Shown here: piece after piece, positions 1-12,420 of the stretch
How the letters are laid out: every line of letters begins with the position of its first letter
Position numbering within the stretch: the first letter of the stretch is position 1
IMG/VR virus record: IMGVR_UViG_2585427758_000001
Span: 1-12,420 of that record
Direction: 5' to 3' (one strand)
Origin: a virus
Taxonomy: Duplodnaviria > Heunggongvirae > Uroviricota > Caudoviricetes
DNA length: 12,420 bases
The notes under the pieces: model-generated
Told to the model about the DNA's origin: nothing
Database searches by the model: none
Seen by the model: the letters and a program-made list of their open reading frames with translations, nothing else
Position numbers and translations under genes: made by a program

Positions 1-1
1 G

Positions 2-565
2 ACCATCACCGGCGGCAGTGTTGCGCTGGAAGATGGTGTGTTTAAGGTTACCAAGCAGAGCAATAAAACCTGGTCCCTGATGCATCCGGTGGATGACGCA
101 GTCTCCCTGCTGACACGGGGTGGCAGACTGAGCTGTAAGTTTCGACTGTCAGGCGCACTGACCAACAACCAGTTCGGTCTGGGAATTTATCTGTATACCG
201 ATGTAGCGTTACCTGACGTCGTGGCGATGACCGGGACTGGTAACCCGTTCCTGATGTCGTTCTTCACCCAGACCACAGACGGCAAACTGAATCTGATGCA
301 TCACAGGAAAGCAGGAAACACAAAGTTGGGCGAGTTCGGGAATTACAGTAACGACTGGCAGACGCTGGAGCTGGTGTTCACCGCCGGCAGTGCCACGGTT
401 ACTCCGAAACTGAATGGAGTGGCTGGCCCGGCATTCCAGGTCATAAAAGACAGTCTGACACTGGGGCTGAATGCGCTGACGCTGACGGATATTACCAAAA
501 ATGCAGCGTATGGCGTTGAGATAGAAAGTCTGGTGCTGGAGATAAATGCACCAGCATCATCATAA
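2..565 (+). CDS. 3' portion of a gene starting upstream of the window; hypothetical, Thr/Gly/Asn/Ser-rich, possibly a carbohydrate-binding or beta-rich C-terminal domain of a late-region moron (NanS-p-like esterase C-terminus is only a guess)
   Basis: Reading frame is open from position 2 to stop at 563-565 (no stop upstream in frame, checked by hand). The GTG at 38 in the ORF track is probably internal. Product guess rests on composition and genomic position only. Confidence 0.55.
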   Translation, partial: TITGGSVALEDGVFKVTKQSNKTWSLMHPVDDAVSLLTRGGRLSCKFRLSGALTNNQFGLGIYLYTDVALPDVVAMTGTGNPFLMSFFTQTTDGKLNLMHHRKAGNTKLGEFGNYSNDWQTLELVFTAGSATVTPKLNGVAGPAFQVIKDSLTLGLNALTLTDITKNAAYGVEIESLVLEINAPASS

Positions 566-649
566 AAAGTGAGCCAGTCAAATGGAAGGTATCGTTAAAC
601 TCACCGGTAGTGTCAGTGGGTCGTCTGAGATGCCTGCATGAGTTATCAG

Positions 650-681
650 AGCCATCAGTACTTAACTGGTGGCTTTTTTTA
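650..681 (+). terminator. Rho-independent terminator-like hairpin plus T-tract upstream of the holin gene
   Basis: Stem AGCCATCAG (650-658) pairs with CTGGTGGCT (666-674) with one G-U pair, 7-nt loop, followed by TTTTTTT (675-681). Confidence 0.6.
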
Positions 682-715
682 TTGTTGTCAGCTTCCGGAT
701 AACGGGAGACGGGGT

Positions 716-931
716 ATGTACCAGATGGAAAAAATCACAACAGGTGTGTCATACACCACGTCAGCGGTGGGAACGGGCTACTGGTTCCTGCAGTTGCTGG
801 ACAGGGTTTCCCCGTCTCAGTGGGCGGCAATAGGCGTGCTGGGGAGTCTGCTGTTTGGGCTGCTGACATATCTGACTAACCTGTATTTCAAAATCAGAGA
901 GGACCGTCGTAAGGCTGCACGGGGAGAGTAA
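716..931 (+). CDS. S: Class II holin (pinholin, phage 21 S-like), 71 aa, with dual-start motif
   Basis: Starts MYQMEK (Met1/Met4 dual start typical of holin/antiholin pairs). Two hydrophobic segments ([20 protein letters not shown] and [23 protein letters not shown]) and a charged C-terminus [21 protein letters not shown] about 7 nt upstream of ATG 716. The ORF-track start at 638 lacks an RBS and adds a non-hydrophobic leader. Confidence 0.85.
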
Positions 932-935
932 TTCA

Positions 936-1280
936 ATGACTCAAAACTATGAACTGATTGTGAAAGGGATCCGCAATTTTGAGAATAAAGTTACGGTAAC
1001 TTTAGCGTTACGGGACAAAAAACGCTTTGACGGTGAAATTTTTGACCTGGACATCTCGCTGGACCGTGTTGAAGGTGCCGCGCTGGAGTTTTATGAGGCA
1101 GCAGCCAGAAGGAGCATCAGACAGGTCTTCCTGGATGTTGCTGCCGGGTTATGTGAAGGGGATGAGCAGTCGCCGGAAAAGCGCCCCGTAATTTTAGAGG
1201 CGCAGGATGTGTTGATAACCTACAGAGGAAAACTACCGGGAATAATTACGGGTTCTCTGAAGAGTCCGCCGAAATGGTAA
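936..1280 (+). CDS. Hypothetical 114-aa protein, possibly DUF1327/YdfR-like (a family found between holin and endolysin in E. coli lambdoid prophages)
   Basis: Intact ORF with SD-like GGGGAGAG upstream, sitting 4 nt after the holin stop. Family assignment is from memory of the Qin prophage essQ-ydfR-rrrQ order, not a computed match. Region is AT-richer than the head genes. Confidence 0.65.
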   Translation: MTQNYELIVKGIRNFENKVTVTLALRDKKRFDGEIFDLDISLDRVEGAALEFYEAAARRSIRQVFLDVAAGLCEGDEQSPEKRPVILEAQDVLITYRGKLPGIITGSLKSPPKW

Positions 1281-1518
1281 TTTTACCAGCATATTTTTCA
1301 TCCAGTAATACAGCAAGCCGCCTGAAAGAGTCTTGTTGTTCCTGAGACCATTTGGGATTGCATGATTCAAACTGGATTGATGCCAGCGTTGATTGCATCT
1401 GTTCCCTTGGAATTGAGAATGCCAGATATGAGAAGGCGACGGTAAGGGTATTCACGTCTTCCCGAAGCCTGGAAATGCTGTCGAGCAACTCCTGTAGAGA
1501 AATGGTGTTATTGTCCAT
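1246..1518 (-). CDS. Hypothetical 90-aa acidic protein on the opposite strand, convergent with the 936..1280 gene
   Basis: ATG at minus-strand 1518 is preceded by GAGGA with a 6-nt spacer (good SD). Balanced, non-repetitive composition. 3' end overlaps the 936..1280 ORF by 35 nt. The competing + ORF 1352..1558 has no RBS and is Cys/Ser-rich. Confidence 0.45.
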   Translation of the reverse strand: MDNNTISLQELLDSISRLREDVNTLTVAFSYLAFSIPREQMQSTLASIQFESCNPKWSQEQQDSFRRLAVLLDEKYAGKITISADSSENP

Positions 1519-1573
1519 AAATAATCCTCATGATTGTATTGACCTGTTAGCAGCCTGAGGCAACAGGCTGGAA

Positions 1574-1623
1574 CTGATAAACATATCCAGGGCTCAGAAA
1601 CCGATAAATCCTGATAAATATCC
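1574..1623 (+). repeat. Direct repeats CTGATAAA(C)ATATCC immediately upstream of the endolysin start codon
   Basis: CTGATAAACATATCC at 1574-1588 and CTGATAAATATCC at 1611-1623, with a third GATAAAT at 1603-1609. Seen directly in sequence. Confidence 0.5.
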
Positions 1624-2157
1624 ATGAACGCAAAAATCAGATACGGCCTGTCGGCTGCCGTTCTGGCGCTGATTGCCGCTGGTGCGCCTGCGCCTGACAT
1701 TCTCGACCAGTTTCTGGATGAAAAGGAAGGTAACCACACCACGGCATACCGTGATGGCGCGGGTATCTGGACCATCTGCCGCGGTGCCATCCTGGTGGAT
1801 GGCAAACCTGTCGTTCCGGGCATGAAGTTGTCGAAGGAAAAATGCGACCGGGTTAACGCCATTGAGCGTGATAAGGCGCTGGCATGGGTGGAGAAAAACA
1901 TCAGAGTGCCATTGAGTGAACCCCAGAAAGCGGGGATCGCGTCATTCTGTCCGTACAACATTGGCCCCGGTAAGTGTTTTCCGTCGACGTTTTATAAACG
2001 AATTAATGCAGGTGATCGCAGGGGAGCGTGTGAGGCGATTCGCTGGTGGATTAAGGACGGTGGCAGAGACTGCCGTATTCGCTCAAATAACTGTTACGGT
2101 CAGGTATCCCGTCGTGACCAGGAGAGCGCGCTGGCGTGCTGGGGAATCGACAGATAA
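1624..2157 (+). CDS. R: SAR endolysin, T4-lysozyme family (GH24) phage lysozyme, 177 aa
   Basis: N-terminal weakly hydrophobic Gly/Ala-rich segment YGLSAAVLALIAAGAPA (SAR-like). Catalytic motif E-x8-D-x5-T in EKEGNHTTAYRDGAGIWT. Follows the pinholin as expected for pinholin/SAR-endolysin pairs. Confidence 0.9.
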   Translation: MNAKIRYGLSAAVLALIAAGAPAPDILDQFLDEKEGNHTTAYRDGAGIWTICRGAILVDGKPVVPGMKLSKEKCDRVNAIERDKALAWVEKNIRVPLSEPQKAGIASFCPYNIGPGKCFPSTFYKRINAGDRRGACEAIRWWIKDGGRDCRIRSNNCYGQVSRRDQESALACWGIDR

Positions 2158-2247
2158 GCAGAATATTTTGCTAATCAATGACGTTGGCCAAGGCGGACGG
2201 ATAACACGAAATCCTGCGAACTGGCAAAATGTAAGTGAATAAAAGTA

Positions 2248-2286
2248 AAAACCCCGTTTGTTGGCAGCAAGCGGGGTTTTGTTTTT
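2248..2286 (+). terminator. Strong rho-independent terminator downstream of the endolysin
   Basis: A-tract, then stem CCCCGTTTGT (2252-2261) pairing with GCAAGCGGGG (2267-2276) including two G-U pairs, 5-nt loop, then TTTTGTTTTT (2277-2286). Confidence 0.7.
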
Positions 2287-2351
2287 ATGGCAGTAAGCTA
2301 TGGGAGGCTGCCTTGATTGATTTTAGCAAACTGATTAGGGAGTTGCGACTC

Positions 2352-2447
2352 ATGATTAGTCAATTACCAAACTGGAAATTTTTGCTGGTCTGGAGCATCC
2401 CTTTTTTATGGGTAGTATCCCAGTTAATTGTGGCAATTAAGGGGTAG
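2352..2447 (+). CDS. Candidate small hydrophobic peptide, 31 aa (MISQLPNWKFLLVWSIPFLWVVSQLIVAIKG)
   Basis: ATG 2352 with GGGAG 9 nt upstream; single predicted TM helix; stop TAG lies 2 nt before the next ATG. Not in the ORF track (below its size cutoff). Could be a T-rich artefact. Confidence 0.3.
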   Translation: MISQLPNWKFLLVWSIPFLWVVSQLIVAIKG

Positions 2448-2449
2448 CT

Positions 2450-2581
2450 ATGTCAGACAAACTCATAACGCCGGCAAAGGTCCTGTGTGTGATTGTCGGT
2501 ATTTCATTTTCACTAATGCTGGTTGCTCTTTTTCTGTCCCTCGCCTGGGTGATGTTGTCTTCGTCGGGGCTGCTGGGGTGA
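2450..2581 (+). CDS. Candidate small membrane peptide, 43 aa (MSDKLITPAKVLCVIVGISFSLMLVALFLSLAWVMLSSSGLLG)
   Basis: ATG 2450 with SD AAGGGG and a 5-nt spacer; one strongly hydrophobic helix; stop TGA overlaps the GTG of the next small ORF (GTGA). Confidence 0.4.
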   Translation: MSDKLITPAKVLCVIVGISFSLMLVALFLSLAWVMLSSSGLLG

Positions 2582-2700
2582 CAGTGACTGATGACATCAG
2601 CAGAGCGCTGGCTTTTGCTATTAAGTGGGTGGCTGTTGGTATTGCTGTGTCTCCGATGCTGTATGGGCTGGCAAAACTGGTCATTGCGCTGAAATCGTGA
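2578..2700 (+). CDS. Candidate small membrane peptide, ~40 aa (VTVTDDISRALAFAIKWVAVGIAVSPMLYGLAKLVIALKS), paralogous to the next peptide
   Basis: GTG start overlapping the previous stop; hydrophobic helix. Shares the RA(L/M)AFAI(K/R)xVA motif with the 2712..2798 peptide, encoded with different synonymous codons (AGA/CGG Arg, GCG/GCA, GCT/GCC Ala). Confidence 0.4.
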   Translation: MTVTDDISRALAFAIKWVAVGIAVSPMLYGLAKLVIALKS

Positions 2701-2711
2701 ACTTTAAAAAG

Positions 2712-2798
2712 ATGAGTGCTGAACTTATTCGGGCAATGGCATTTGCCATTCGTATTGTGGCCATTGCTGTTCTGGTCTGGGCAATCCGTTGGTGGTGA
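2712..2798 (+). CDS. Candidate small membrane peptide, 28 aa ([28 protein letters not shown]), paralogous to the previous peptide
   Basis: ATG 2712; stop TGA 2796-2798 sits 1 nt before the Rz ATG at 2800. Sequence similarity to the 2578..2700 peptide is preserved at protein level despite synonymous differences. Confidence 0.4.
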
Positions 2799-2799
2799 T

Positions 2800-3267
2800 A
2801 TGAACCGTGTTCTGTGTGTGGTGATTATTGTCATGCTGGTGGCCTGTGGTGCGCTTAGTCTGGGGCTGAATCATTACCGTGATAACGCCATTACCTACAA
2901 AGCCCAGCGCGACAAAAATGTCAGAGAACTGAAGCTGGCGAACGCGGCAATTACTGACATGCAGATGCGTCAGCGTGATGTTGCTGCGCTCGATGCAAAA
3001 TACTCGAGGGAATTAGCCGATGCGAGAGCTGAAAATGAAACTCTTCGCGCTGACGTTGCCGCTGGTCGTAAGCGCCTGCGTATCAACGCCACCTGTCCAG
3101 GTCCCGTGCGTGAAGCCACCGGCACCGCCCGCGTGGATAATGCAACCGGCCCCCGACTGGCAGACACCGCTGAACGGGATTATTTCACCCTCAGAGAGCG
3201 GCTGATGACGATGCACAAGCAACTGGAAGGGGCGCAGGAATATATCCGCACTCAGTGCCTGAAATAA
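2800..3267 (+). CDS. Rz: Inner-membrane spanin Rz (i-spanin), 155 aa
   Basis: N-terminal TM anchor ([20 protein letters not shown]), then [17 protein letters not shown]...[16 protein letters not shown], closely matching lambda Rz as recalled. ATG 2800 preceded by GGTGGTGA. The ORF-track GTG at 2716 would add an unsupported leader. Confidence 0.9.
3020..3205 (+). CDS. Rz1: Outer-membrane lipoprotein spanin Rz1 (o-spanin), embedded in the +1 frame of Rz
   Basis: Signal peptide with lipobox LVVSAC, Pro-rich mature part [32 protein letters not shown] matching lambda Rz1 as recalled; wholly inside Rz in another frame. True start may be Met1 (3020) or Met6 (3035). Confidence 0.85.
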
Positions 3268-3484
3268 GTTTTGCTGATGCGCGGTATTGTCGCCGTATCC
3301 CCGCATTAACAGAGACCGCAGCCCGACCGGGAGACTCCTCTGCGCGAGTGTGCGGGGATAATCAAAAACGATACACACCGGGGTTTACCGCGTTAACGGA
3401 GCGCGGCGTTGTCCCCTCATAGTCGCCTGTCCGGTGCGATGGTGGAAGAAACCGGACTACATTGAAAATGATAACCATTATCAT

Positions 3485-3535
3485 TTTTGCGGGTCCTTTC
3501 CGGCGATCCGGGCCGTTACGGGGCGGCGACCTCGC
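3485..3535 (+). other. cos: cos site: cosQ-like region and cosN with the 12-nt cohesive-end sequence GGGCGGCGACCT (3521-3532)
   Basis: Exact lambda cohesive-end sequence at 3521-3532, preceded by GCGGGTCCTTTCCGGCGATCCG...GTTACG resembling the lambda right end and followed by CGCGGGTTTTCGCTATTTATGAAAATTTTCCGG as at the lambda left end (from memory). Confidence 0.85.
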
Positions 3536-3567
3536 GGGTTTTCGCTATTTATGAAAATTTTCCGGGG

Positions 3568-3685
3568 AAAATCATGTCGGTACTTCTCGAACATAACTAT
3601 TTGTTTTTTCTAATATCGAATCCGTAAAAGGTCCGACATGAAAACGCCTAAAAAAGTCATTTTCGGGCACTTTCATGTCGGCCCC
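3568..3685 (+). repeat. cosB: cosB-like terminase small-subunit binding region: three copies of TCATGTCGG (direct 3572-3580, inverted 3633-3641, direct 3673-3681) flanking an AT-rich segment
   Basis: Repeats seen directly. Arrangement direct-inverted-direct at about +52, +113 and +153 from the cohesive-end start mirrors lambda R3-I1-R2-R1, but the repeat sequence differs from the lambda R consensus (CGTTTCC...). AT-rich spacer 3590-3625 is a plausible IHF/bend site (weak match only). Confidence 0.6.
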
Positions 3686-3708
3686 TGTATTTATTGTGAG
3701 ACTGTTTC

Positions 3709-4228
3709 ATGAAGGTTAATAAAAAGAAACTTGCCGAAATTTTCAACGTGGATCCGCGAACGATTGAACGCTGGCAGTCTCAGGGACTCCCTTGTGTCTC
3801 CGGAGGTGGTAAGGGCGTTGAATCTGTATTTGATACCGCCATGGCAATTCAGTGGTATGCGCAGAGGGAAGCTGATATCGAAAATGAAAAACTCCGTAAA
3901 GAGGTTGAGGATTACAGGGCTGCCAGTGAGGCAGATCTCCAGCCTGGGACTATTGAGTACGAACGCCATCGACTTACGCGTGCGCAGGCCGACGCACAGG
4001 AGCTGAAGAATGCCAGAGACTCCGCAGAGGTGGTGGAAACCGCATTCTGTACTTTCGTGCTGTCACGGATCGCAGGTGAAATTGCCAGTATTCTTGACGG
4101 GATCCCTCTCTCGGTACAGCGGCGTTTTCCGGAACTGGAAAACCGACATGTTGATTTCCTGAAACGGGATATCATCAAAGCCATGAACAAAGCAGCCGCG
4201 CTGGATGAACTGATACCGGGGTTGCTGA

Positions 4229-4254
<26 letters not shown>
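3709..4254 (+). CDS. nu1: Terminase small subunit (Nu1-type), 181 aa; N-terminal DNA-binding domain non-lambda (phage 21-like by recollection), C-terminal part lambda-identical
   Basis: Same length and 26-nt overlap with A as lambda Nu1. From about residue 73 ([32 protein letters not shown]...) it matches lambda Nu1 as recalled; residues 1-70 ([29 protein letters not shown]...) are divergent. Confidence 0.9.
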
Positions 4255-7935
<3,681 letters not shown>

Positions 7936-7955
<20 letters not shown>

Positions 7956-9255
7956 TCTCCCGCATATTGCCAGCATGGCTTTTAATGAGCCGCTGATGCT
8001 TGAACCCGCCTATGCGCGGGTTTTCTTTTGTGCGCTTGCAGGCCAGCTTGGGATCAGCCGCCTGACGGATGCGGTGTCCGGCGACAGCCTGACTGCCCAG
8101 GAGGCACTCGCGACGCTGGCATTATTCGGTGATGATGACGGACCACGACAGGCCCGCAGTTATCAGGTCATGAACGGCATCGCCGTGCTGCCGGTGTCCG
8201 GCACGCTGGTCAGCCGGACGCGGGCGCTGCAGCCGTACTCGGGGATGACCGGTTACAACGGCATTATCGCCCGTCTGCAACAGGCTGCCAGCGACCCGAT
8301 GGTGGACGGCATTCTGCTCGATATGGACACGCCAGGCGGAATGGTGGCGGGGGCATTTGACTGCGCTGACATCATTGCCCGTGTGCGTGACATAAAACCG
8401 GTATGGGCGCTGGCCAACGACATGAACTGTAGTGCAGGTCAGCTGCTTGCCAGTGCCGCCTCCCGGCGTCTGGTCACGCAGACCGCCCGGACAGGCTCCA
8501 TCGGCGTCATGATGGCTCACAGTAATTACGGTGCTGCCCTGGAGAAACAGGGTGTGGAAATCACGCTGATTTACAGCGGCAGCCATAAGGTGGATGGCAA
8601 TCCCTACAGCCATCTTCCGGATGACGTCCGGGAGACACTGCAGTCCCGGATGGACGCAACCCGCCAGATGTTTGCGCAGAAGGTGTCGGCATATACCGGC
8701 CTGTCTGTGCAGGCTGTGCTGGATACCGAGGCTGCAGTGTACAGCGGTCAGGAGGCCATTGATGCCGGACTGGCTGATGAACTTGTTAACAGCACCGATG
8801 CGATCACCGTCATGCGTGATGCACTGGATGCGCGTAAATCCCGTCTCTCAGGAGGGCGAATGACCAAAGAGACTCAATCAACAACTGTTTCAGCCACTGC
8901 TTCGCAGGCTGACGTTACTGACGTGGTGCCAGCGACGGAGGGCGAAAACGCCAGCGCGGCGCAGCCGGACGTGAACGCGCAGATCACCGCAGCGGTTGCG
9001 GCAGAAAACAGCCGCATTATGGGGATCCTCAACTGTGAGGAGGCTCACGGACGCGAAGAACAGGCCCGCGTGCTGGCAGAACCCCCCGGTATGACCGTGG
9101 AAACGGCCCGCCGCATTCTGGCAGCTGCACCACAGAGTGCACAGGCGCGCAGTGACACTGCGCTGGATCGTCTGATGCAGGGGGCACCGGCACCGCTGGC
9201 TGCAGGTAACCCGGCATCTGATGCCGTTAACGATTTGCTGAACACACCAGTGTAA
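7936..9255 (+). CDS. C: Head maturation protease / scaffold gpC (S49-family serine protease), 439 aa, GTG start
   Basis: Begins VTAELRNLPHIASMAFNEPLMLEP... as lambda C; GTG 7936 preceded by GAGGAGGAGAAG; overlaps the B 3' end. The ORF-track ATG at 7801 is an in-frame upstream extension inside B and is not the start. Confidence 0.9.
8860..9255 (+). CDS. nu3: Scaffolding protein Nu3, translated from an in-frame internal start within C
   Basis: Internal ATG 8860 (MTKETQSTTVSA...) preceded by strong SD AGGAGGG; co-terminal with C. An alternative in-frame ATG at 8650 (MDATRQMF...) cannot be excluded from sequence alone. Confidence 0.5.
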   Translation: MTKETQSTTVSATASQADVTDVVPATEGENASAAQPDVNAQITAAVAAENSRIMGILNCEEAHGREEQARVLAEPPGMTVETARRILAAAPQSAQARSDTALDRLMQGAPAPLAAGNPASDAVNDLLNTPV

Positions 9256-9264
9256 GGGATGTTT

Positions 9265-9597
9265 ATGACGAGCAAAGAAACCTTTACCCATTACCAGCCG
9301 CTGGGCAACAGTGACCCGGCACATACGGCAACCGCGCCCGGCGGATTGAGTGCGAAAGCGCCTGCAATGACCCCGCTGATGCTGGATACCTCCACCCGTA
9401 AGCTGGTTGCGTGGGATGGCACCACCGACGGTGCTGCCGTTGGCATTCTGGCGGTTGATGCTGACCAGACCAGCACCACGCTGACGTTCTACAAGTCCGG
9501 CACGTTCCGTTATGAGGATGTGCTCTGGCCGGAGGCTGCCAGCGACGAGACGAAAAAACGGACCGCGTTTGCCGGAACGGCAATCAGCATCGTTTAA
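9265..9597 (+). CDS. D: Head decoration protein gpD, 110 aa
   Basis: [43 protein letters not shown]... matches lambda D as recalled; ATG 9259 two codons upstream is less likely. Confidence 0.95.
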
Positions 9598-9614
9598 CTT
9601 TACCCTTCATCACT

Positions 9615-9640
9615 AAAGGCCGCCTGTGCGGCTTTTTTTA
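9615..9640 (+). terminator. Hairpin plus U-tract between D and E (terminator or attenuator-like)
   Basis: GGCCGC (9618-9623), loop CTGT, GCGGCT (9628-9633), then TTTTTTT; sits in the D-E intergenic spacer. Confidence 0.4.
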
Positions 9641-9652
9641 CGGGATTTTTTT

Positions 9653-10678
9653 ATGTCGATGTACACAACCGCCCAGCTGCTGGCGGCAAATGAGCAGAAA
9701 TTTAAGTTTGATCCGCTGTTTCTGCGTCTCTTTTTCCGTGAGAGCTATCCCTTCACCACGGAGAAAGTCTATCTCTCACAAATTCCGGGACTGGTAAACA
9801 TGGCGCTGTACGTTTCGCCGATTGTTTCCGGTGAGGTTATCCGTTCCCGTGGCGGCTCCACCTCTGAATTTACGCCGGGATATGTCAAGCCGAAGCATGA
9901 GGTGAATCCGCAGATGACCCTGCGTCGCCTGCCGGATGAAGATCCGCAGAATCTGGCGGACCCGGCTTACCGCCGCCGTCGCATCATCATGCAGAACATG
10001 CGTGACGAAGAGCTGGCCATTGCTCAGGTCGAAGAGATGCAGGCAGTTTCTGCCGTGCTTAAGGGCAAATACACCATGACCGGTGAAGCCTTTGATCCGG
10101 TTGAGGTGGATATGGGCCGCAGTGCGGCGAACAACATCACACAGTCCGGCGGCACGGAGTGGAGCAAGCGTGACAAGTCCACGTATGACCCGACCGACGA
10201 TATCGAAGCCTACGCGCTGAACGCCAGCGGCGTGGTGAATATCATTGTGTTTGACCCGAAAGGCTGGGCGCTGTTCCGTTCCTTCAAAGCCGTCAGGGAG
10301 AAGCTGGATACCCGTCGCGGCTCTCATTCCGAACTGGAGACAGCGGTAAAAGACCTGGGCAAAGCGGTGTCTTATAAGGGAATGTATGGCGATGTGGCCA
10401 TCGTCGTGTATTCCGGACAGTACGTGGAAAACGGCGTCAAAAAGAACTTCCTGCCGGACAACACGATGGTGCTGGGTAACACTCATGCACGCGGTCTGCG
10501 CACCTATGGCTGCATTCAGGATGCGGATGCACAGCGCGAAGGCATTAACGCCTCTGCCCGTTACCCGAAAAACTGGGTGACCACCGGCGATCCGGCGCGT
10601 GAGTTCACCATGATTCAGTCAGCACCGCTGATGCTGCTGGCTGACCCTGATGAGTTCGTTTCCGTACAACTGGCGTAA
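9653..10678 (+). CDS. E: Major capsid protein gpE, 341 aa
   Basis: MSMYTTAQLLAANEQKFKFDPLFLRLFFRESYPFTTEKVYLSQIPGLVNMALYVSPIVSGEVIRSRGG... matches lambda E as recalled; the ORF-track start at 9626 lies inside the upstream hairpin. Confidence 0.95.
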   Translation: MSMYTTAQLLAANEQKFKFDPLFLRLFFRESYPFTTEKVYLSQIPGLVNMALYVSPIVSGEVIRSRGGSTSEFTPGYVKPKHEVNPQMTLRRLPDEDPQNLADPAYRRRRIIMQNMRDEELAIAQVEEMQAVSAVLKGKYTMTGEAFDPVEVDMGRSAANNITQSGGTEWSKRDKSTYDPTDDIEAYALNASGVVNIIVFDPKGWALFRSFKAVREKLDTRRGSHSELETAVKDLGKAVSYKGMYGDVAIVVYSGQYVENGVKKNFLPDNTMVLGNTHARGLRTYGCIQDADAQREGINASARYPKNWVTTGDPAREFTMIQSAPLMLLADPDEFVSVQLA

Positions 10679-10680
10679 TC

Positions 10681-10706
10681 GTGGCCCTTCGGGGCCATTT
10701 TCTCTC
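10681..10706 (+). terminator. Stable UUCG-tetraloop hairpin followed by a U/C-rich tract between E and FI
   Basis: GTGGCCC (10681-10687), loop TTCG, GGGCCAT (10692-10698), then TTTCTCTCT; the pyrimidine tract is not a clean U-run, so terminator function is uncertain. Confidence 0.35.
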
Positions 10707-10719
10707 TGTGGAGGAGTTC

Positions 10720-11106
10720 ATGACGAAAGATGAACTGATTGCCCGTCTTCAGGAGCTGGGTGAGCAACTGAACCGTGATGTCAGCCTGACGGGAACGAAA
10801 GAAGAACTGGCGCTCCGTGTGGCAGAGCTGGAAGAGGAGCTTGATGACACTGCCGATCAGGATACCCCTATCAGCCCGGAAAATGCGCTGACCGGACATG
10901 AAAATGAGGTTGTATCAGCGCAGCCGGATACCGTGACTGATACGGCTGATCTGGTCACGGTTGTGGCACTGGTGACGCTGCATACTGATGCACTTCACGC
11001 CACGCGGGATGACACTGTGGCATTTGTGCTGCCGGGAACGGCGTTCCGTGTCTCTGCCGGTGTGGCAGCCGAAATGACAGAACGCGGCCTGGCCAGAATG
11101 CAATAA
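10720..11106 (+). CDS. FI: DNA packaging protein gpFI
   Basis: MTKDELIARLQELGEQLNRDVSLTGTKEELALRVAELEEELDD...GTAFRVSAGVAAEMTERGLARMQ matches lambda FI as recalled; SD GGAGGAG before ATG 10720. Confidence 0.9.
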   Translation: MTKDELIARLQELGEQLNRDVSLTGTKEELALRVAELEEELDDTADQDTPISPENALTGHENEVVSAQPDTVTDTADLVTVVALVTLHTDALHATRDDTVAFVLPGTAFRVSAGVAAEMTERGLARMQ

Positions 11107-11117
11107 CGGGAGGCGCT

Positions 11118-11471
11118 GTGGCTGATTTCGATAACCTGTTCGATGCTGCCATTGCCCGCGCCGATGAAACGATACGCGGGTACATGGGAACGTCAGCCAC
11201 CATGACATCCGGTGAGCAGTCCGGCGCAGTAATACGTGGTGTTTTTGATGACCCTGAAAATATCAGCTATGCCGGACAGGGCGTGCGCGTTGAAGGCTCC
11301 AGCCCGTCCCTGTTTGTCCGGACTGATGATGTGCGGCAACTGCGGCGTGGAGACACGCTGACCATCGGTGAGGAAAACTTCTGGATAGACCGGGTTTCGC
11401 CGGATGATGGTGGAAGCTGTCATCTCTGGCTCAACCGTGGGCAACCACCCGCTGTTAACCGGCGACGATAA
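11118..11471 (+). CDS. FII: Head-tail connector protein gpFII, 117 aa, GTG start
   Basis: MADFDNLFDAAIARADETIRGYMGTSATMTSGEQSGAVIRGVFDDPENISYAGQGVRVEG... matches lambda FII as recalled; SD GGGAGG upstream. Confidence 0.9.
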   Translation: MADFDNLFDAAIARADETIRGYMGTSATMTSGEQSGAVIRGVFDDPENISYAGQGVRVEGSSPSLFVRTDDVRQLRRGDTLTIGEENFWIDRVSPDDGGSCHLWLNRGQPPAVNRRR

Positions 11472-11486
11472 ACGCAGGGTGAAATT

Positions 11487-12062
11487 ATGGCGATAAAAGG
11501 GCTTGATCAGGCGATTGATAATCTGAGCCGGGTTCGTAAAAACGCCATTCCGGCGGCTTCAGCAATGACGATTAACCGCGTGGCCACAACGGCGATTAAT
11601 CAGTCTTCGTCACAGGTTGCCCGGGAAACCAGGGTGAGACGGAAACTGGTAAAGGAACGGTCCAGACTGAAACGGGCGACGGTCAGAAATCCGAATGCCA
11701 GAATTATCGTTAACCGCGGTGATCTCCCTGTGATTAAGCTGGGGATCAGAATGCTGGGACGTCGTCCGAACAGCATACTCAAAGCCGGTCAGCATCGTTA
11801 TCAGCGGGCATTTATCCAGCGATTAAATAATGGGCGCTGGCATGTTATGCAACGTCTTCCCCAGGCCAGATATGAGGAGGGCAATGACGACAAGGGAAGG
11901 AAAAAGCGTAATCGCCTTCCCATTCAGGTGGTGAAAATCCCGATGGCGGCCCCACTGAAACAGGCATTTGATGAGAATGTTGACCGTATCCGGCGTGAAC
12001 GCCTGCCTAAAGAACTGGCATACGCGCTGAAACAACAACTGAGGATTGCAATAAAACGATGA
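11487..12062 (+). CDS. Z: Tail assembly / tail completion protein gpZ, 191 aa
   Basis: MAIKGLDQAIDNLSRVRKNAIPAASAMTINRVA...; position after FII and ATGA overlap with U as in lambda. Confidence 0.9.
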   Translation: MAIKGLDQAIDNLSRVRKNAIPAASAMTINRVATTAINQSSSQVARETRVRRKLVKERSRLKRATVRNPNARIIVNRGDLPVIKLGIRMLGRRPNSILKAGQHRYQRAFIQRLNNGRWHVMQRLPQARYEEGNDDKGRKKRNRLPIQVVKIPMAAPLKQAFDENVDRIRRERLPKELAYALKQQLRIAIKR

Positions 12063-12420
12063 AACACACTGACATTCGTGCCGCAGTGCTGGATGCACTC
12101 GAGCAGCATGAACACGGGGCGACGCTGTTTGATGGTCGCCCCGTTGTTTTTGACGAAGAGGATTTTCCTGCGATCGCGGTTTATCTGACGGATGCAGAGT
12201 ATACCGGTGAAGAGCTGGATGCAGATACCTGGCGGGCCACGCTGCATATTGAGGTGTTTTTACCGGCACAGGTACCGGATTCAGAGCTTGATCAGTGGAT
12301 GGAAAGCCGGATTTACCCGGCGATGACCGCGATCCCGGCACTGGCAGGACTGATTACCACGATGGTTACGCAGGGCTATGAGTATCGTCGTGATGACGAT
12401 ATGGCGTTATGGAGTTCTGC
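12059..12420 (+). CDS. U: Tail terminator protein gpU, 5' portion (continues beyond window end)
   Basis: MKHTDIRAAVLDALEQHEHGATLFDGRPVVFDEEDFPAIAVYLTDAEYTGEELDADTWRATLHIEVFLPAQ... matches lambda U as recalled; no stop before the window end. Confidence 0.9.
   Translation, partial: MKHTDIRAAVLDALEQHEHGATLFDGRPVVFDEEDFPAIAVYLTDAEYTGEELDADTWRATLHIEVFLPAQVPDSELDQWMESRIYPAMTAIPALAGLITTMVTQGYEYRRDDDMALWSS

Follow-up and report, generated by a model that had tools for sequence, protein, structure and literature searches.

Four small open reading frames (ORFs) between the endolysin gene R and the spanin gene Rz of an E. coli lambdoid prophage are very probably real, selected genes that encode membrane proteins of the late operon. 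They lie in a 511-nt interval (2290–2800) of a 12,420-nt stretch (positions 1 to 12,420 of the IMG/VR virus record IMGVR_UViG_2585427758_000001; hereafter the window), which is the late region of the prophage. The four ORFs fall into three families: A (ORF1), B (ORF2), and C/D (ORF3 and ORF4). We put the probability that their products are late-expressed inner-membrane accessory proteins modulating lysis or envelope disruption at roughly 0.35–0.4. Lysis by lambdoid and Shiga toxin (Stx) phages is among the best-studied phage processes and is taught as the work of holin, endolysin, Rz, and Rz1. An earlier interpretation of the window, made from its letters alone (the sequence-only reading), was supported in part, and overall we regard the four ORFs as uncharacterised accessory or moron genes inside the lysis cassette. 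The sequences themselves were already catalogued in PHROGs and as RefSeq hypothetical proteins; new are the gene models, the relationships among the families, the rule on gene position, and the link to a hairpin.

Gene models and coding evidence

Direct reading of the sequence confirmed four tandem ORFs on the plus strand at 2352–2447, 2450–2581, 2578–2700, and 2712–2798, where the sequence-only reading had placed them, and also the chain of overlapping or nearly overlapping stop and start codons that runs from them into Rz. The ORF1 stop codon (TAG, 2445–2447) is followed 2 nt on by the ORF2 ATG (2450), itself preceded by AAGGGG at a distance of 5 nt. The ORF2 stop codon (TGA, 2579–2581) shares the sequence GTGA with the ORF3 GTG at 2578, and a further in-frame GTG is found at 2584. 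The ORF3 stop codon (TGA, 2698–2700) likewise shares GTGA with GTG 2697 in the ORF4 frame, and the ORF4 ATG (2712) is located 15 nt further on. ORF4 stops at TGA 2796–2798, and 1 nt separates it from the Rz ATG (2800). Each peptide contains one hydrophobic 17-mer with a mean Kyte-Doolittle value of 1.9–2.8, in agreement with the single transmembrane (TM) helix per peptide that had been predicted.

The chained plus-strand ORFs span 0.96 of the interval, versus 0.68 ± 0.14 in 1000 dinucleotide shuffles, of which 5 reached the real value. These ORF statistics alone gave a modest signal, and the case for genes rests on comparison with other genomes. In that comparison, selection on the protein, which had been proposed earlier, appeared strong for family C and moderate for family B, whereas for A and D it rests on conservation across genera. 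The frames were conserved as proteins.

All four ORFs matched PHROG families of unknown function (6632, 4906, and 1115/3246/4493) and RefSeq WP_ proteins without function. No Pfam, NCBIfam, or PADLOC model matched any of the peptides (PADLOC gave 0 families at E ≤ 1). The sequence-only reading recognised no described family in the peptides; this holds in that no characterised family matched them, but not in that they were already catalogued under these PHROG and WP_ entries. The PHROG entries are the same proteins, as indicated by direct hidden Markov model matches, but they are automatic clusters without function, name, or described genomic logic.

ORF1 (family A) can be read from TTG 2313 (2313–2447, 44 aa) or from ATG 2352 (2352–2447, 31 aa). 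It has an N-terminal amphipathic segment and one TM helix, and its match to phrog_6632 was weak (E = 6e-5). The 13 codons before ATG 2352 (IDFSKLIRELRL) were conserved as protein, with synonymous changes, in H-19B, many Stx phages, and Salmonella phages SPN3UB, FSL SP-016, and SEN34, and the conservation reached Enterobacter, Citrobacter, Klebsiella, Providencia, and Pseudomonas phage YMC11/02/R656. We therefore moved the start to TTG 2313, which is most likely the correct one as judged from sequence; a Shine-Dalgarno (SD) site, GGGAGG (2302–2307), is located 5 nt upstream of it. Family A homologues all start at GTG or TTG behind a strong SD site and were kept over the full 44–45 aa across genera. 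With its invariant internal Met, family A could also yield a second, shorter product; the same applies to Met13 of family C. The N-terminal similarity of A and C (K.I..LRL.M) was suggestive at most (shuffle p = 0.011). The family A homologue of Pseudomonas phage YMC11/02/R656 has another small TM ORF, of 38 aa, behind it (MNAKDAGIVGKRLANAALILATGVAIASIIAAIGVVLG; L229, 2671–2787). Clusters of micro-membrane-protein genes are therefore found outside enterobacterial phages too.

ORF2 (family B, 2450–2581) encodes 43 aa with a single TM helix and matched phrog_4906 (E = 4.5e-21). A translated search detected family B in 276 phage records, each time over all 43 residues and with 63–100% identity. 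The carriers include most Stx1 and Stx2 phages, BP-4795, Min27, phi191, and the O104:H4 phage P13374, and the gene is often unannotated in them. In the protein database, 103 family B clusters were found, all from E. coli and nearly all of 43–44 aa. The dN/dS relative to the window copy was 0.2–0.5, and the best antisense frame resembled the sense frame (0.54 versus 0.46). A frameshift after residue 27 (…LVALRLDDVVFVG…) was observed in L115, in about 7 other loci, and in P0078, yet the stop codon remained near the normal end. These copies pointed to decay of B in some prophages. An origin of family B from the N-terminal TM domain of Rz, with which it has VLCV...MLVA in common, was rejected, as shuffle p ranged from 0.008 to 0.9 by pair and control TM domains scored alike.

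ORF3, the family C core, is read from GTG 2578 (2578–2700, 40 aa) or from GTG 2584 (38 aa) and matched phrog_1115 (E = 8e-25). ORF4 (family D) is read from GTG 2697 (2697–2798, 33 aa) or from ATG 2712 (2712–2798, 28 aa) and matched phrog_4493 (E = 3.8e-6). ORF3 additionally matched phrog_3246 and phrog_4493, ORF4 additionally matched phrog_3246, and as a pair they hit phrog_4493, phrog_3246, and phrog_1115. Full-length C has 60 aa (M.KYKRILLRLTMKNGLELKAPVTDDISRA.AFAIKWVAVGIAVSP.LYGLAKL.IALKS), and this form gave E = 1.4e-42 against the PHROG profile. Full-length D, from phage GER2, has 50 aa and ends in RWW. The two full-length forms aligned with a score of 108, versus 23 ± 4.5 for shuffles. 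This alignment and the common PHROG matches indicated that ORF3 and ORF4 are paralogs, and the motif that the sequence-only reading had seen in both is thereby accounted for.

ORF3 and ORF4 do not carry the N-terminal leader of these 50–60 aa relatives. The two are thus truncated derivatives of the 60-aa and 50-aa proteins; the leaders were swapped out at the B|C and C|D junctions, where ORF3 and ORF4 begin at new GTG or ATG codons. The original gene models thus hold as to the presence of the ORFs, but not as to the likely start of ORF1 and the truncated state of ORF3 and ORF4.

Family C provided the clearest evidence of selection. Its 18 distinct nucleotide haplotypes encode only 8 proteins, and variable sites are distributed 8/5/25 over the three codon positions. 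The coding frame gave a dN/dS of 0.10; the alternative sense frames gave 1.1 or more, and no antisense frame went below 0.19. A long minus-strand ORF (2463–2834) was rejected as coding, as the sense frame of family C had the lowest dN/dS and the ORF spans modules that are separate elsewhere. Family C relatives of 60 and 48 aa were found in E. coli, E. marmotae, and Salmonella, and C/D relatives also in Yersinia enterocolitica and Klebsiella aerogenes. A Yersinia relative ends in RWW, 1 nt ahead of Rz. A HMMER profile search with family C over 1.84 billion representatives returned 17 clusters only, all of tiny proteins, indicating that the family is narrow, without large relatives or a tie to a known family. 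In the AlphaFold 2 model of a 60-aa family C protein, a helix (residues 2–18) and a short loop are followed by a long helix (23–59); the predicted local distance difference test score was about 90 over residues 31–60.

The C-terminal RWW of A and D proteins was also retained in contexts without a downstream Rz (SEN34, Rac-SA53, Citrobacter, and Klebsiella), indicating that it is a protein feature and not merely the ribosome-binding site of Rz. In two loci (L010, about 3975–4003; L225, about 1405–1434), an 8-codon mini-ORF (MCREVYSL or MGREVLSL) behind a conserved SD site ends in a TGA that overlaps the C/D GTG start (GTGA). In the O157 locus (L006), the ATG of the mini-ORF is fused straight to the family C reading frame.

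A mosaic slot and its hairpin

The interval was matched in 1750 of 5426 complete E. coli genomes. In many of them, ST131 strains included, it is 100% identical, and RefSeq lists three or four "hypothetical proteins" in it. The slot in Stx phages and many E. coli prophages contains an antirepressor gene (ant) and/or one to five small genes. The premise that nothing normally lies between R and Rz in lambdoid cassettes is therefore wrong for these phages, as the genome count and the 276 phage records with family B indicated.

Junction architectures were counted over about 180 fetched loci. The two frequent contents were R-C-B-Rz (74 loci) and R-A-B-C-D-Rz (71 loci). Others were ant-A-B-C-D, ant-B, ant-A-B, C-D, C alone (Salmonella), C-B-C-D, A-B-C-B, and a single A-type gene (H-19B; R-A2-Rz). 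The edges of BLAST homology coincided with the ends of ORFs: query positions 161–292 correspond to ORF2, and 295–412 correspond to ORF3 from GTG 2584. The small genes evidently shuffle between prophages as whole-ORF modules.

Prophages of E. ruysiae and E. albertii (L205 and L209, both 1971–2504) provided natural empty sites. In them, a highly similar R21-type R overlaps Rz directly (ATGA), and there is neither a hairpin nor a small ORF. Because near-identical R and Rz abut directly there, the array is accessory and dispensable for the layout of the cassette. The array, the untranslated stretch after R, and the hairpin have together been inserted where endolysin and spanin genes meet in a cassette of the S21/R21/Rz type.

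The peptides recurred between endolysin and spanin in five unrelated cassettes without common flanking homology, the R21-type cassette with Rz being the first. In Salmonella, family C follows an HP1-type holin and lysozyme and precedes Rz. Family B was found with an M15 peptidase, then ant, then Rz. In Enterobacter, family A comes after Holin_8, holin_3_7, and a GH19 endolysin and before an unrelated, overlapped, non-Rz spanin pair. A C-like gene lies between a PG_binding_1 protein and two small lipoproteins in a P2-like prophage. A Yersinia prophage remnant has retained both C/D and Rz, spaced 1 nt apart in that order. The module of the P2-like prophage (L235, 2030–3565) has a 280-aa PG_binding_1 protein and, after it, a hairpin, a 50-aa ORF resembling C, and a pair of small lipoprotein ORFs that overlap each other, with the lipoboxes LLAGC and AVAC. 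It sits between tail-fibre assembly and sheath genes and could be a second, cargo lysis-like module.

In the window, R is followed on the plus strand by a conserved untranslated stretch (2158–2247) with a mini-hairpin (GGATAACACGAAATCC), which was kept across 53 sequence variants, Salmonella included. Over the whole element after R (2158–2290), the flanks round the mini-hairpin are variable, and the stem has compensatory changes from E. coli to Salmonella. Rfam gave no credible match in 2100–2900 at gathering or permissive thresholds. An identity with the Pas prophage small RNAs was rejected, as these are located upstream of the holin and not after R.

An intrinsic-terminator-like hairpin with a 15-bp stem and then a T-run occupies 2248–2290. 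An A-run and a T-run flank it, which makes it a potential bidirectional terminator, and it stands at the head of the small-gene array. The same type of hairpin (AAAACCCCG...CGGGGTTTT) precedes the first small ORF in 13 modules with family A and C/D genes from E. coli, Salmonella, Enterobacter, Citrobacter, Pseudomonas, and P2-like prophages, and a strong SD site, often GGCAAGGGAGAA, follows 20–45 nt beyond it. RNAalifold analysis of the 13 modules retained 13 pairs, and compensatory changes were present in 5 of these. The hairpins probably descend from a common ancestor, although stems of such composition are frequent among terminators. The unit of hairpin, strong SD site, and GTG- or TTG-started small TM ORF was seen in L006, L010, L222, L223, L229–L233, L235, L239, L240, and the window (2248–2315), and two tandem copies of it are present in L233. 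The unit resembles a mobile module in which the hairpin comes before the gene and not after it.

Possible roles of the peptides

We favoured a role in modulating lysis because the placement between endolysin and spanin repeats in unrelated cassettes. The peptides would be made solely from the Q-antiterminated late transcript, along with holin, endolysin, and spanins. Late-only expression is suggested because no promoter was found from the hairpin to ORF1 and the terminator is located upstream; a scan with the sigma-70 consensus detected no plus-strand sigma-70-like promoter in 500–3800, nor between hairpin and ORF in the modules examined. Ribosomes would load at the strong SD site of ORF1 and run down the chain into Rz by termination-reinitiation. 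The peptides would insert with the N-terminus in the cytoplasm; in the full-length forms, basic residues precede the TM segment. Full-length A and C/D proteins are predicted to have an amphipathic, basic helix at the N-terminus and one long helix after it. Acting in the inner membrane late in infection, the peptides may tune holin triggering, endolysin release, or spanin action, for example, and would not be core lysis factors.

Accessory membrane proteins in lysis cassettes have precedents. P2 LysA, P1 LydB, the T4 antiholin RI, and the Mu gp25 'releasin' are small or TM domain-containing, are encoded by non-core genes within or next to the holin, endolysin, and spanin genes, are made late, and tune envelope breach. 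They are possible functional analogues, likened by description. The peptides here matched no annotated lysis family. A difference is that the peptides are far smaller (28–60 aa), have no periplasmic or cytoplasmic domain other than a short helix, and are also present in tail gene clusters.

The peptides differ from core lysis proteins as well. They are small and contain a TM domain, as holins do, but they end in ...AIKG, ...SSSGLLG, ...ALKS, and ...IRWW, with 0–1 charged residues after the TM segment instead of a charged hydrophilic C-terminus. No Pfam or NCBIfam holin model matched, and the cassette already has an S21-type holin (716–931). The peptides end no more than about 5 residues past the TM segment and contain neither a periplasmic coiled coil nor a lipobox as spanins do, and Rz and Rz1 are present separately.

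Several observations weigh against a lysis role. An antirepressor gene, which has no lysis role, occupies the same R-Rz slot, and the copy number and order of the small genes vary freely. The charged C-terminal domain typical of holins is absent, and no holin, antiholin, or spanin model was matched. About 8 loci carry a frameshifted family B. Family A is also found between baseplate genes (SEN34 and Rac-SA53), between lambda-type I and J (Citrobacter), and among minor tail genes of the Pseudomonas phage, beside the 38-aa TM ORF; distant C/D relatives are located after tail-fibre assembly genes. Since A and C/D are not confined to lysis cassettes but are found among tail and baseplate genes too, position alone is no proof of a lysis role. 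An unusual promoter would escape the sigma-70 scan. In the literature, we found no paper on these peptides and no expression or phenotype data. Our estimate for the lysis role was kept low because the tail-cluster sites and the co-resident antirepressor fit a function-agnostic moron slot equally well.

According to that rival explanation, the peptides are cargo unrelated to lysis, that is, small inner-membrane proteins that exclude superinfecting phages or alter the host envelope (cf. HK97 gp15, T4 Imm, and P22 SieA), and the R-Rz site is used merely because insertions are tolerated there. We considered this somewhat unlikely. Besides the resident antirepressor gene, it is favoured by the movement of whole-ORF modules among unrelated late-operon positions and genera and by the distant C/D relatives after tail-fibre genes. 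The L235 copy between tail-fibre assembly and sheath genes also fits, at a position that we take to correspond to the P2 Z/fun moron position. HK97 gp15 and its kin are tiny inner-membrane exclusion morons in late or tail operons of temperate phages and are spread horizontally. Classical morons come with a promoter of their own and a terminator behind the gene, and the prophage expresses them. Like them, the arrays are extra DNA between otherwise adjacent genes, which is the moron feature described by Hendrix, as the direct overlap in L205 and L209 and the variable slot content indicated. They differ in that the sigma-70 scan found no promoter, the single strong hairpin precedes the array, and Rz follows directly on the last ORF; the likeness to HK97 gp15 is one of description.

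In genome logic, the arrays come closest to the 'ant moron' slot of P22-like phages, a variable late-operon region in which the antirepressor gene, sieA, and small genes of unknown function are mixed although the phages are otherwise syntenic (PMC2629481). Like that slot, the R-Rz site is a hypervariable place of insertion in a Q-dependent late operon. The P22 slot, however, is located before the tailspike gene and has its own promoters and repressors (mnt, arc, and sar), whereas the slot here is at the endolysin-spanin junction, yielded no promoter, and contains genes with a translational chain into Rz.

Superinfection exclusion normally needs expression from a repressed prophage. Such expression is not expected here, given the missing promoter and the upstream terminator. 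PADLOC gave no defence-protein match, and the exact placement between endolysin and spanin repeats in cassettes without common flanking homology, which also argues against mere cargo.

The lysis-modulator reading has a more far-reaching form, in which hairpin and micro-membrane-protein modules are an unrecognised mobile class that homes to endolysin-spanin junctions and adds a fourth layer to Gram-negative phage lysis. We regarded this form as unlikely. Such a layer may act, for example, by gating pinholin triggering, signal-anchor-release (SAR) endolysin release, or spanin activation.

It is improbable that the ORFs serve chiefly as a ribosome relay. In that case, the hairpin insertion broke an ancestral R-Rz overlap, the ORFs with strong SD sites bring ribosomes to the weakly initiated Rz start, and the peptides are secondary. 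The ATGA overlap of R and Rz where the array is absent agrees with this, as do the junctions of the array down to Rz, which are all 1–11 nt or GTGA overlaps, the absence of a good SD site of its own for ORF4, and the 8-codon mini-ORF coupled to the C/D start in L010 and L225. A relay needs no given peptide, yet family C is under purifying selection, the sequences of A, B, and C/D are kept across genera, and RWW is kept without Rz behind it. Moreover, one ORF would suffice for a relay, and arrays reach five.

Still less probable are type I toxin-like hydrophobic peptides, that is, addiction or abortive-infection modules checked by an antisense RNA. In favour are the small size and hydrophobicity of the peptides and a promoter-like site on the minus strand (2456..2427: CTGACA, 18-nt spacer, CACAAT, and an upstream TG), which is aimed antisense into ORF1, towards the hairpin that could end such an RNA; a weak likeness to the Rfam family ohsC was also found over the hairpin (21.6 bits versus a gathering score of 50, E = 1.2). 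However, minus-strand promoter-like sites were no more frequent than chance (2 found versus 3.9 expected), and the -10 element of this one was not kept in L008. The putative toxin genes have no promoter, no Rfam antitoxin RNA matched at threshold, and the genes are co-oriented and chained inside the late operon.

That the ORFs are not genes at all, but frames open by chance in T-rich spacer DNA or remains of a longer gene that decayed, is hardly credible: the ORFs are short, a few shuffles equalled their coverage, some B copies are frameshifted, and annotation pipelines differ on start codons, but purifying selection was frame-specific, lengths are fixed, proteins are conserved across genera, homology edges coincide with ORF ends, and modules occur alone and in varied orders, unlike a split single gene.

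The surrounding cassette and significance

The gene order in the window is DUF6645, holin, YdfR, a minus-strand ORF, lysozyme, the small-ORF interval, Rz/Rz1, Nu1, terminase, portal, and head. The DUF6645 protein is encoded at 38–565. The holin gene on the plus strand encodes an S21-type class II (pin)holin with the dual-start motif MYQMEK (Pfam PF04971, E = 2.3e-32; a 71-aa class II holin in RefSeq). It is followed by a YdfR/DUF1327 protein (936–1280). The R21-type lysozyme R (1624–2157, plus strand; Pfam PF00959, E = 1.3e-23) has an N-terminal hydrophobic, SAR-like segment (MNAKIRYGLSAAVLALIAAGAPAP). The i-spanin Rz (2800–3267, plus strand) matched Pfam PF03245 (E = 2.1e-51). The o-spanin Rz1 is a listed plus-strand ORF (3020–3205) in the +1 frame within Rz, with a lipobox-like LVVSAC in its translation.

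The minus-strand ORF (1246–1518) is another uncharacterised gene inside the lysis cassette, between holin and endolysin. It encodes 90 aa, is present in RefSeq as WP_000369850, and matched phrog_2411 over its full length (E = 1e-58). It is convergent with YdfR and overlaps the YdfR 3' end.

In a search of genome contigs with Rz, most matches at 71% identity were phage lambda sequence in genome assemblies from unrelated taxa (for example, Kitasatospora, Bacillus relatives, Bacteroidetes metagenome-assembled genomes, and Shewanella; L179–L204 and others). Some of these contigs are about 48.5 kb, and contamination or spike-in is most likely.

The small genes have been unnoticed inside a much-studied lysis cassette, although about one-third of complete E. 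coli genomes match the interval. Carriers of such genes include the classical phages H-19B, BP-4795, and Min27 and the O104:H4 outbreak phage P13374, and in many records the genes are not annotated. The corrected gene models and the list of natural architectures are ready genetic controls. If the peptides tune lysis timing, they would matter for burst size, for the fitness of the prophage, and for the kinetics with which Shiga toxin is released. If the modules do form a fourth layer of lysis, they would influence lysis timing and Shiga toxin release widely, since most Stx phages carry at least family B. If the role is another one, they would still be abundant, strongly conserved phage micro-proteins with a testable position rule.

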